Source of the DNA: a virus
Taxonomy: Duplodnaviria; Heunggongvirae; Uroviricota; Caudoviricetes
Virus record (IMG/VR): IMGVR_UViG_2896595138_000005
Coordinates: 1 to 20,870 of that record
DNA length: 20,870 nt
Strand: one strand, 5' to 3'
Shown here: one piece after another, positions 2,741-4,911 of the stretch
How positions within the stretch are numbered: position 1 is the stretch's first letter
Layout of the letters: the number at the start of each line of letters is the position of its first letter
Program-made: the position numbers and the translations under genes
The notes under the pieces: model-generated
Database searches by the model: none
What the model saw: only the letters and a program-made list of their open reading frames with translations
What the model was told of the DNA's origin: nothing

Positions 2741-2768
2741 CCCAAAAAGCCCCGTTCCCTCGGGCTTT
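2741..2768 (-). terminator. rho-independent terminator after the 177-aa gene
   Basis: Minus-strand AGCCCGAGGGAACGGGGCT stem-loop followed by TTTTT, starting at the TAA stop codon. Confidence 0.5.
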
Positions 2769-3300
2769 ATTCTTTTGTTCCGCCATCAATCATCGCAAAA
2801 GATTCCACAATCAGACTGATACGCTTGGCTTCATCTTTTGTCAGGTCGCGAGGCAGGTTGCCAATGGTGACGATAAGATCTCCGCGCAATGGAATCGGCA
2901 GTTCAAATGTTTTTACACCAACCTGTACGTCAGCTACCGCCTTCTTCTTAGGTGCCATCTTTTTACGCTCCTTTTTTTTATTTACATCACCAACTGACAC
3001 ATTAATCTCACCATTCTGGTAGGAGATAAATTTATCAATAGCACTTTGCATTCGGCTTTTGTATGCCTGCAAAGATGATTCAGAGGGTTTGCTTTCTGCT
3101 GAGTCTGCGTACGAACTTGCTAAGTTGGCAACGCTATAATCACGGATATCGGCATCGGTGAAATCCGCCCCAAGAACAGTAAGAAGGCGCAGGGAAGAGT
3201 CACGGAGATTGCGGGCTGTAGCATCATTGACGATACCAAGCTCAGGAAGCATCTGTAAGAAGTCCTGAAATGCTTTGATGGTGTAGCTTTTGGTTTGCAT
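2767..3300 (-). CDS. hypothetical protein (177 aa) in the cI-to-OL cargo position
   Basis: Long ORF with a lysine-rich central linker (NKKKERKKMAPKKK); no recognisable family; flanked by its own 5' hairpin and 3' terminator. Confidence 0.6.
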   Translation of the reverse strand: MQTKSYTIKAFQDFLQMLPELGIVNDATARNLRDSSLRLLTVLGADFTDADIRDYSVANLASSYADSAESKPSESSLQAYKSRMQSAIDKFISYQNGEINVSVGDVNKKKERKKMAPKKKAVADVQVGVKTFELPIPLRGDLIVTIGNLPRDLTKDEAKRISLIVESFAMIDGGTKE

Positions 3301-3575
3301 AAAAAAGCCTCATACAGTTGATGAGGCAATACTAATTTGATCGTCAAAACAAATCAAGACCCAAGAAACGATCGTTGATTCCTTTCTTTGTGACAATACA
3401 GTCAAATCAAGTTTTACAAGGATTACTTTTCTTCGATTACATTAAAGGCCGCACTTCTGCGACCATCCATCACCAAAATGTCTCTTCACTCATCCGAAGA
3501 AGCAGCAATCCGGGTCAGCACGCACAAGCTCAAGCGCATCAGTCAGCGAAAGTTCAGTACTGTACTGATGCCATT

Positions 3576-3830
3576 TCATATCCTTCCGCATCCAATAGAT
3601 TTTCCATCTATCCAGAGAACGTATGTACTTGATTCTTGCTGATGGCAGGATGTTTGTTTCACCTGGGTTGCCCTGCCACACGGGCGCTGTTCGCCGATAT
3701 CTATCGTTTGGTCATTGATGCTATAAACAATATCCAGTTCATTGCGGATATGTTCAGGCGGCCTTATGCTTTCAATGAATTGGTGAACTTCTTTTTTGAC
3801 CGCTTGATATTCAAGGTCAGTGAACGCCAT
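3576..3830 (-). CDS. hypothetical protein (84 aa) co-transcribed with cI
   Basis: GAGGAGG RBS 5 nt upstream of the ATG; starts 37 nt after the cI stop on the same strand; no recognisable family. Confidence 0.55.
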   Translation of the reverse strand: MAFTDLEYQAVKKEVHQFIESIRPPEHIRNELDIVYSINDQTIDIGEQRPCGRATQVKQTSCHQQESSTYVLWIDGKSIGCGRI

Positions 3831-3867: not shown

Positions 3868-4575
3868 TTACCAGCTATGCGATGACCAGAATACTCTGCC
3901 AATAATCCTTACGGTTTTATGAAATTCATCTCTATCCATTACTTCATCCGGGTACTCTTCGCGATTTATTGATCTGATTATCACCGATGTAGGAGTGGCG
4001 ATTAATGTTTTTACTCGCAACAAATCAGACTGGCAAATAGCGTAGGTTTTACCATCTCTGATGGTGGTATCTTGTGTGTTAACACCAACAACATCGCCAT
4101 CGTGAAGAGTTGGTTCCATGCTTTGACCTGTTACCCTTACCAGCTTGGCAGAACTTTCAGTTACCCCCATCTTTTTCAGATAGTACTTTCTGAAAACCAA
4201 AGAGAACTCTGATGATTCTTCTATCTCGCAGCTACCGCTTCCAGCCGAAAGCGAAACGTTAAGAAGAGGCAATGCGACAAACTCGTCATCGTTTTTTTTA
4301 ATGTCTTCCCATACCACAGCTTTTAAAGATGACTCACGGATATTGGATGGTTCTTCATGTGTACCATCCCTCATTTCACCAATACCAGAACTAAGCCATT
4401 CAGGGCGTACTTTTAAAGCATTAGCTAACTCAACCATCTTGCGAGATCCGTTTGTTTTACCGGATGACATCTTCTGTATGGCTGGCTGAGATATTCCAAC
4501 CATGTCCGCAAGCTGTGATTGCGACACCCCTGCCGATCTCATGGCTGCATTTAGTCTTTCTGCGAATGTTTTCAT
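3868..4575 (-). CDS. cI: CI-type prophage repressor (N-terminal HTH, C-terminal S24 LexA-like autopeptidase domain)
   Basis: HTH-like segment QSQLADMVGISQPAIQKM and a C-terminal S24-like region (VTGQSMEPTLHDGDVV, LRVKTL). Start placed at MKTFAERL (4575) rather than the first in-frame ATG (4605) because an operator site lies between them. Confidence 0.8.
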   Translation of the reverse strand: MKTFAERLNAAMRSAGVSQSQLADMVGISQPAIQKMSSGKTNGSRKMVELANALKVRPEWLSSGIGEMRDGTHEEPSNIRESSLKAVVWEDIKKNDDEFVALPLLNVSLSAGSGSCEIEESSEFSLVFRKYYLKKMGVTESSAKLVRVTGQSMEPTLHDGDVVGVNTQDTTIRDGKTYAICQSDLLRVKTLIATPTSVIIRSINREEYPDEVMDRDEFHKTVRIIGRVFWSSHSW

Positions 4576-4587
4576 ATCCACAAATCT

Positions 4588-4662
4588 ATAACTACGGTTA
4601 TCCAAAGTAAAATAATAAAGGTTATTGCTATCTTTTATAACTTGGGTTATCCTTGGTTATAA
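4588..4662. promoter_or_regulatory. OR operator cluster with divergent pRM/pR
   Basis: ATAACTACGGTTAT (4588..4601), ATAAAGGTTAT (4615..4625), ATAACTTGGGTTAT (4637..4650) and GGTTATAA (4655..4662), between the divergent cI and cro starts. Confidence 0.6.
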
Positions 4663-4686
4663 GCAATGGCTGAAAGAGGTATGCTC

Positions 4687-4911
4687 ATGAATTTAGTAAT
4701 TCAACGAGCCTTGAAGATTGTCGGTAGTCAAAAGCGGCTTGCCGACAAGTGTGGTGTAACGCAGCCAGCAGTACACAAATGGCTGAAAGGCGGGCAGGTT
4801 TCTCCAGAGAAAGTTACCGCCATCGTTAACGCCACTGGAGGGCAGATCAAGGCTTACGAAATTCGCCCAGATTTACCACACCTGTTTCCAAAACCGAATC
4901 AGGCAGCATAA
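4687..4911 (+). CDS. cro: Cro-like HTH repressor
   Basis: Small HTH protein (KRLADKCGVTQPAVHKWLKG) divergent from cI; AGAGGT RBS favours the ATG at 4687 over the ORF-track start at 4666. Confidence 0.7.
   Translation: MNLVIQRALKIVGSQKRLADKCGVTQPAVHKWLKGGQVSPEKVTAIVNATGGQIKAYEIRPDLPHLFPKPNQAA

Follow-up and report, generated by a model that had tools for sequence, protein, structure and literature searches.

A hairpin abutting the start codon of the 177-aa gene

The window, that is, the whole stretch of DNA analyzed here (20,870 nucleotides [nt]; positions 1 to 20,870 of IMG/VR virus record IMGVR_UViG_2896595138_000005), is a lambdoid prophage of the Shiga toxin (Stx)-phage type. On its minus strand, cI is followed in order by a DUF3024 gene, a hairpin at 3464-3447, a promoter-like element, the hairpin that is the subject of this study, a gene encoding a protein of 177 amino acids (aa), a terminator, an open reading frame (ORF) of 44 aa and, later, the N gene. 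The studied hairpin directly precedes the ATG of the 177-aa gene and incorporates the Shine-Dalgarno (SD) sequence of that gene. The minus strand from 3340 to 3298 reads ...TAGTAT TG CCTCAT CAACTGT ATGAGG C TTTTTT ATG, and comprises the following parts of the hairpin and its surroundings:

3321 to 3327, minus strand: 5' arm of the stem, GCCTCAT, with the anti-SD CCTC at 3326-3323; 100% complementary to the 3' arm
3314 to 3320, minus strand: loop, CAACTGT
3307 to 3313, minus strand: 3' arm of the stem, ATGAGGC, with the SD GAGG at 3311-3308, separated from the ATG by a 7-nt spacer
3301 to 3306, minus strand: run of six Ts (T6), which would serve as SD-to-ATG spacer in mRNA from the gene's promoter and as U-tract of a weak intrinsic terminator on read-through RNA
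3298 to 3300, minus strand: ATG start codon of the 177-aa ORF (3300-2767)

The layout of hairpin, T6 and ATG given in the original prediction is correct to the base, and reading the sequence also bore out its statement that the GAGG in the 3' arm is the only SD-like sequence, since between the stem and the ATG there is no SD-like purine run besides GAGG. The promoter-like element that it placed just upstream (TTGATT-17-TAGTAT) is present as described, and the predicted stem does form when the RNA is folded in silico, with an energy of -10.1 kcal/mol and a z score of -1.96; 8 of 200 shuffled sequences folded equally well. A terminator scan listed the same hairpin with 7 pairs (4 of them G-C), a loop of 7 nt and the tail TTTTTTAT; seven such sites were found in 2.7 kb, compared to 2.7 expected. 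No covariance-model match to Rfam was obtained at E ≤ 1 on either strand between 2600 and 3900. Taken by itself, the hairpin is real but only marginally beyond chance, and it owes its significance to its conservation in homologues.

Conservation of the stem and of the promoter geometry

Upstream regions were taken from homologues of the 177-aa protein, yielding 15 distinct stem-bearing leaders (proteins 49-100% identical) from E. coli/Shigella, Serratia, Symbiopectobacterium, Salmonella, Enterobacter, Citrobacter, Yersinia and metagenomes; single loci are named below by L numbers. The CCTCA:TGAGG pairing is kept in these 15 leaders, which share the order -10, 1-2 nt, CCTCA(T), loop, (A)TGAGG, 6-8 nt, ATG. 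The loops are 3-16 nt long and unrelated in sequence (CAACTGT, TACCTT, CGACTGT, AGGTTGTTT, CTA, AAGTTGATT, a 16-nt loop in Yersinia phage YP3, and others). Each of the six core pairs is a standard one in 87-100% of the sequences, and the flanking and inner pairs change on both sides with pairing kept. Thus, the pair outside CCUC:GAGG is G-C in five leaders (the window clade), A-U in six (Salmonella/Enterobacter/Citrobacter) and U-A in one (the Yersinia clade); a further outer pair, where present, is C-G or U-A; and the inner stem is lengthened by AAG/CUU, AUC/GGU or AA/UU. One core pair is flipped from C-G to G-C in L187. The only substitutions in the anti-SD are C to T, one each in L014, L030 and L059, and since all of them yield G.U pairs, the constraint appears to act on the sense-strand RNA, not on a DNA palindrome.

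Pairs were counted on arms-only sequences from which the loop centers had been removed, and the count was also run in a 13-sequence version; a MAFFT alignment of the full leaders was dropped for this purpose because differences in loop length caused the 3' arm to be misaligned. In the arms-only alignment, standard pairs occupy 73% of the cells, versus 36-51% in slid registers, and 6 of the 12 pairs have changes in both partners. For covariation, the score is 0.213, compared to 0.142 ± 0.018 in shuffles, and was reached by none of 500 shuffles. Together, the G.U-only substitutions and the free loop lengths argue for a sense-strand RNA stem over either a protein-binding palindrome or an antisense RNA. 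Moreover, because only about half of the lineages have retained the U-run, the comparison supports the pairing of SD with anti-SD, rather than termination, as the conserved feature. The suggestion in the original prediction that the stem sequesters the ribosome-binding site gains support from these homologues, in which the anti-SD CCUC pairs with the only SD.

The stem stands in a fixed relation to a putative promoter, whose parts in the window are:

3352 to 3357, minus strand: -35 hexamer TTGATT, inside a CTTGATT that is invariant in 13 homologous upstream regions
3329 to 3334, minus strand: -10 hexamer TAGTAT, 17 nt after the -35; TATTAT, TAATAT, TACTAT, TATCAT or TACCAT in homologues
3322, minus strand: predicted transcription start from promoter geometry, an A preceded by C, 7 nt after the -10

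In the 13-sequence alignment, positions T1, A2, A5 and T6 of the -10 are invariant, as is T-C-A at the predicted positions -2 to +1, while the spacer is constant in length, at 17 nt, and variable in sequence; the spacer of L189 and L187 is 18 nt long. The promoter-like element of the original prediction is therefore conserved as well as present, with an invariant -35 and a constant 17-nt spacer; its conservation pattern is that of a working sigma-70 promoter, and from this we infer its activity. The distance from the -10 to the first stem pair is 1-2 nt in 13 lineages, and 1 nt in the window. The RNA polymerase of E. coli starts 6, 7, 8 or 9 nt past the -10 in 8%, 55%, 29% and 7% of cases, positions that together cover about 99% of starts, and initiation further than 1 bp upstream of the most frequent position is rare (PMC5730371). 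Since the -10 in the window ends 1 nt before the stem, the expected start at A3322 falls inside the 5' arm, and with a start at A3322, G3327-C3323 (positions 2-6, including the anti-SD) would lie outside the promoter's own transcript. The covarying outer pairs lie only 1-2 nt past the -10, so the RNA under selection would have been initiated further upstream.

Predicted folding distinguishes these two kinds of RNA. In the window, the probability that GAGG is unpaired is 0.00 when the 5' end lies 1-2 nt past the -10, 0.03-0.07 when it lies at 3-4 and 0.20-0.23 when it lies at 5-11. Across 13 lineages, the SD is predicted to be unpaired with a probability of 0.00-0.05 in read-through RNA, compared to 0.16-0.78 in RNA that begins at position +7, and the predicted energy for opening the SD is about 10-11 kcal/mol on read-through RNA versus about 5-6 kcal/mol on the gene's own RNA. 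The stem is kept in both the minimum-energy and the centroid folds of a 230-nt read-through RNA, and the gene's own leader folds at -5.9 kcal/mol (z 0.04), no better than shuffles. On these predictions, an mRNA that contained the stem would be nearly untranslatable without help. An RNA thermometer was considered and rejected: in the predictions the stem holds up to 60°C, with a probability of an unpaired SD of at most 0.005 (window, L054 and L027), and no melting is predicted at 30-42°C. In RNA that begins at the predicted start, we also noted a weak alternative hairpin, UGUAUGAG / UUUAUGCA (3322-3271, minus strand; about -5 kcal/mol, with several G.U pairs), which pairs part of the SD with the start codon and does not surpass what shuffled sequences give.

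Several repeats lie around the promoter. CTTGATTTG is present twice on the minus strand, at 3411-3403 and 3358-3350, 53 nt apart, and the second copy constitutes the -35. Over the 160 nt that precede the gene, most clades, the Sakai type included (loci L002, L027, L030, L032, L054, L059, L006 and L007), have an excess of CTTGA/TCAAG (2-4 copies, compared to about 0.35 expected), and four lineages have TTGAT-N11-ATCAA across the -35 and the spacer. The CTTGAT repeats are a candidate operator for some regulator. Control of the promoter by cI was rejected, as the OR operators (TATAAC..GGTTAT, 4606-4665) are unlike the CTTGAT repeats. A CGATC, which holds the Dam site GATC, occurs in the promoter spacer of the window, L002, L027, L032, L052, L053 and L057, and a CGATCG occurs about 10 nt upstream of the -35 (sites 3346-3338 and 3374-3363, minus strand). 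When viral contigs were scanned for the module CTTGATT-N17-TANNAT-NN-YYTCA, 120 loci were found, nearly all of them chance matches; filtering left the known homologues only, so that in the viral contigs the module was not found before other genes.

Translational insulation weighed against other readings

We consider the chances about even that the hairpin is a translational insulator against read-through, which doubles in the window as a weak intrinsic terminator. RNA polymerase would start at A3322, inside the 5' arm, from the TTGATT-17-TAGTAT promoter, and the resulting mRNA would have a leader of roughly 22 nt without the anti-SD and would be translatable. RNA derived from upstream (pRM/pRE, the cI promoter) would, in a lysogen, continue past cI, the DUF3024 gene and, at 3464-3447, the leaky hairpin; such RNA would carry the whole 5' arm, so that the stem would form and the SD would be buried. 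In the window lineage, with U6 after the stem, part of the read-through transcripts would probably terminate there too. In the Salmonella/Enterobacter/Citrobacter context, dinI would take the place of cI as the source of read-through. The net effect would be that the protein is made only from its own, probably regulated, promoter and is shielded from read-through. Since the start would lie inside the 5' arm, the hairpin could not gate the gene's own mRNA and would act on upstream RNA only. Thus, the gating of 177-aa gene translation that the original prediction envisaged holds in part: the SD pairing is conserved, but by the promoter geometry the own mRNA would lack the anti-SD, and gating would be confined to read-through RNA.

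The source of read-through in the window would be the cI operon, whose end is marked by one further hairpin:

3447 to 3464, minus strand: hairpin GGTCGCAGAAGTGCGGCC after the DUF3024 gene, with the tail TTTAATG in the window

This hairpin is homologous to a T6-tailed terminator found after cI/DUF3024 in VT2-Sakai and phage Oslo, and in the window the cI-operon terminator is probably degraded and leaky. With its tail degraded to TTTAATG, read-through toward the 177-aa gene is plausible in the window lineage. Furthermore, since the 177-aa gene is found behind various cI genes or behind dinI, it would face a read-through hazard in every context.

A second kind of leader fits the same scheme. The Sakai/Oslo homologues (L006, VT2-Sakai 2463-2500; L007, phage Oslo) are 38% identical, and their leader is unrelated. 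Their hairpin, CTCgaTCTGAGT..ACTTAGAgaGAG, has a 5' arm that begins in the putative -10 (TAAACT) and a 3' arm that covers a purine-rich SD, and the start predicted for the Sakai type lies at about 1256578 on the minus strand of NC_002695.2. The resemblance to the insulator is no more than suggestive, and the same logic may have arisen, with an unrelated leader, in the Sakai-type clade.

Several other explanations have to be set against this one. The original prediction had also proposed termination, and in its strongest form the chief role of the hairpin and U6 would be intrinsic (Rho-independent) termination of the cI-DUF3024 operon, and their overlapping the SD would be a coincidence. The hairpin does have the form of a terminator, with a 7-bp stem containing 4 G-C pairs, a 7-nt loop and TTTTTT directly after the last pair, and a back-up would make sense in the window lineage, where the upstream hairpin at 3464-3447 has lost its T-tract. 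However, at -8.9 to -10.1 kcal/mol the stem is at the weak end of the range for a terminator, and T6, which is kept in the window, L014, L052, L053, L057, L189 and L032, is replaced in the other stem-bearing lineages, about half of those that keep the stem, by TTTGTT, GTTTT, GTTCT, GTATC or CGTTCA, so that the U-tract is not conserved. A d'Aubenton-Carafa-type score, which was computed with modern energies and is rough and suited to ranking only, is +5.9 in the window and +12.7 in L053 but -6 to -66 in the others, and even L014 and L032, which keep T6, score -6.6 and -36.3; the score is positive in the window clade only. What has been conserved is specifically CCUC:GAGG pairing, with constant distances to both the ATG and the -10, and the hairpin lies past the next gene's promoter, where it would give that promoter no shield from incoming polymerases. 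We therefore regard a primary role in termination as unlikely: the terminator idea holds weakly for the window lineage and fails elsewhere, and termination is probably a marginal, lineage-specific extra. We give the same low probability to a regulated gate, in which the stem is part of a normal mRNA that begins further upstream and is opened by temperature, a small RNA, a protein or a standby ribosome. The conserved SD:anti-SD pairing would suit such a gate, which is in line with the gating first proposed for this hairpin; the second copy of CTTGATTTG and other motifs 50-110 nt upstream are possibly part of another promoter, and in YP3 the gene's own start could precede the stem. Against it, no conserved alternative -10 was found upstream, and by the sole conserved promoter geometry transcription would begin within the 5' arm; pairing of the SD is predicted up to 60°C, which does not fit a thermometer; the hairpin has no Rfam family; and no conserved alternative anti-terminator or anti-sequester structure was seen.

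A slightly less probable alternative denies the hairpin any function as RNA and takes the complementarity as a by-product of a promoter discriminator/start, CCTCA, and an SD, TGAGG, inherited by descent. The core pairs barely vary and are uninformative either way, several lineages tolerate mismatches or are without the stem, and the signal from the single sequence is marginal, as noted above. This explanation is hard to reconcile with the two-sided changes in the pairs outside the SD and the CCTC, with the limitation of anti-SD substitutions to G.U-compatible transitions, with the flipped core pair of L187 and with the excess of paired cells over slid registers. Least probable of all, and in our view very improbable, is a 5'-terminal hairpin that stabilizes the gene's own mRNA against RppH/RNase E in the manner of ompA. 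The stem does begin very near the promoter, and a clade at about 40% identity (the L037 type) has a hairpin at the predicted 5' end that leaves the SD uncovered. A stabilizer, however, needs a start 1-2 nt past the -10, which is rare (PMC5730371; this objection presupposes the putative promoter), and leaves unexplained why the 3' arm is always the SD.

Insulation of the 177-aa gene has its own difficulties, which weigh against it and some of which favor the by-product explanation. As a crude control, predicted occlusion of positions -14 to -6 was compared among the window's ORFs that start with ATG and have 90 codons or more (n = 33); the 177-aa gene ranks 7th of 33, which is unexceptional. 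The covariation comes from few independent events among related sequences, and double changes are almost as numerous (7 pairs, 13 cells) once the register is slid by -1; in addition, the percentage of paired cells is a biased measure, as the structure was derived from the same sequences. L002 (two mismatches), L189 (AA for GC) and YP3 have weaker stems with no compensating change, and the clades at 56-59% identity and several at 40-47% have no such stem. The promoter matches the consensus at 8 of 12 positions, and a consensus scan that needs 9 of 12 did not include it. With 4 nt between the -10 and the arm, YP3 could have the weak stem in the gene's own mRNA. Finally, even on the gene's own transcript the SD is unpaired in silico with a probability of only 0.22, a value owed to a weak alternative hairpin in which the AUG takes part.

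The 177-aa gene as a cassette, and comparable systems

The gene that the hairpin precedes is flanked in the window by the following features:

4666 to 4911, plus strand: cro, divergent from the minus-strand cI operon
ending at 3868, minus strand: cI (S24 peptidase and helix-turn-helix)
3490 to 3830, minus strand: DUF3024 gene, downstream of cI
2767 to 3300, minus strand: 177-aa gene, phrog_2602, of unassigned function, opening at the ATG at 3300-3298
2744 to 2766, minus strand: intrinsic terminator of the 177-aa gene, GCCCG..CGGGGC followed by T5, as read from the sequence

The 2.1 kb around the hairpin are 96.7% identical to Escherichia phage SH2026Stx1, and the segment is present in just 6 of 5426 complete E. 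coli genomes. The 177-aa gene sits where lambda has rexB, and its product is 100% identical to a Shigella boydii entry. The protein gave only sub-threshold matches against Pfam and no match in PADLOC and PDB sequence searches, and Foldseek with its AlphaFold model found nothing in the PDB below E 0.3. In the model (predicted local distance difference test score 72.5), four helices make up an N-terminal domain, which a disordered, lysine-rich linker (residues 102-128) connects to a beta-beta-alpha unit at the C terminus. The sole structural likeness is that of the N-terminal domain to the N-terminal SAM-like domains of integrases, and this is weak (Foldseek E about 0.4); the C-terminal unit is strongly conserved (KTFELPIPLRGDL..NLPRDLT..EA.RI). 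Homologues in phrog_2602 occur across many Enterobacterales prophages, where the gene is found behind at least four different cI genes, behind dinI beside pepN, or, in YP3, beside gin. From its sequence and contexts, the 177-aa gene is best described as an accessory cassette (a "moron") with its own promoter and terminator.

Two of the neighboring reading frames deserve mention. The DUF3024 gene is broken in the window into two minus-strand ORFs, 3830-3576 and 3681-3490, by an indel at about 3684, namely a 1-nt deletion in a C-run (CCCC in SH2026Stx1, CCC in the window); the split gene is either a pseudogene or the result of a sequencing error. The 44-aa ORF (MAHDVNRDDF..., 2594-2460, minus strand) has an AGGAG SD and its own terminator at about 2443-2415, and at almost all loci, irrespective of context, it lies about equally far behind the 177-aa gene. 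It has the look of another small cassette that accompanies this gene.

Parts of the proposed arrangement are familiar. The RNA thermometers fourU and ROSE sequester the SD, and like them the short hairpin described here pairs the SD immediately upstream of the AUG; it differs in that its C-G-rich anti-SD pairing is predicted to stay closed to 60°C and in that the gene's own mRNA probably lacks the 5' arm. In lambda, the intrinsic terminator t_imm after rexB ends the lambdoid immunity operon. Like t_imm and the VT2-Sakai/Oslo terminator, the studied hairpin follows the cI operon on the same strand and has a G+C stem with a T-run after it, but it lies past the next gene's promoter, abuts a start codon and contains the SD, and its T-run is not conserved. 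Lambdoid morons are said, in accounts from 2000 by Juhala and colleagues and by Hendrix and colleagues, to consist of a promoter, a gene and a terminator. The 177-aa gene, with its own conserved promoter and terminator, resembles them and moves between unrelated contexts; the classical description does not include a 5' translational insulator.

The closest parallels lie in insertion sequences (IS). IS200, on the work of Beuzon and colleagues in 1999, reportedly has 5' structures of this general sort; there, two separate structures are involved, whereas here one stem would do both jobs. The stem-loop at the ribosome-binding site of IS200 is also part of the element's own mRNA, unlike what we propose for the 177-aa gene. 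In IS10/Tn10, "fold-back inhibition" was reportedly described by Davis, Simons and Kleckner in 1985, and Krebs and Reznikoff are said to have found an analogous arrangement in IS50 in 1986. The likeness would be that of a mobile gene with its own weak promoter, in which transcripts from outside carry a segment that pairs with the ribosome-binding site and the own transcript starts within the pairing and is translatable, so that the gene is insulated from external promoters; for the 177-aa gene, this start is the one predicted from geometry. The differences are that here a prophage accessory gene behind a repressor operon, not a transposase, would be protected, and that the device is a compact local hairpin of 7-10 bp, with a U-run in the window lineage and with no sequence homology to IS10 or IS50. 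"Mobile attenuators", which lie upstream of transposase genes, have likewise been said to prevent the expression of an IS that is inserted in a transcribed region (Naville and Gautheret 2010; PMC2965389). By analogy, the device would be a further case of a known kind of cis-regulatory element, the logic of IS-type protection having already been described.

We suggest more tentatively, as a possibility that we doubt more than the insulator itself, that the whole 5' end of the gene is a portable module, made up of an operator-flanked CTTGAT-repeat promoter, a start-straddling stem and the SD, by which translation is tied strictly to the promoter of the gene itself at any site where the cassette lands, whether behind different cI genes, behind the SOS-induced dinI or in a P2/Mu-like phage. 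If this is true, the IS strategy of protection from outside transcription would extend to phage morons as a general design rule, and the 177-aa protein would be one that must stay tightly off, for example, because it is toxic or is a conditionally needed lysogeny or defense factor. The element is small, and its principle is already known from insertion sequences. A -10 that abuts a stem whose 3' arm is the SD could serve as a simple signature for finding insulated prophage genes, and RNA-seq coverage over the 177-aa gene in a lysogen would not imply that the protein is made. If the insulator model holds, it would explain how, in a Shiga-toxin-type prophage, a gene that lies behind a constitutively transcribed repressor operon can be controlled by its own promoter only.

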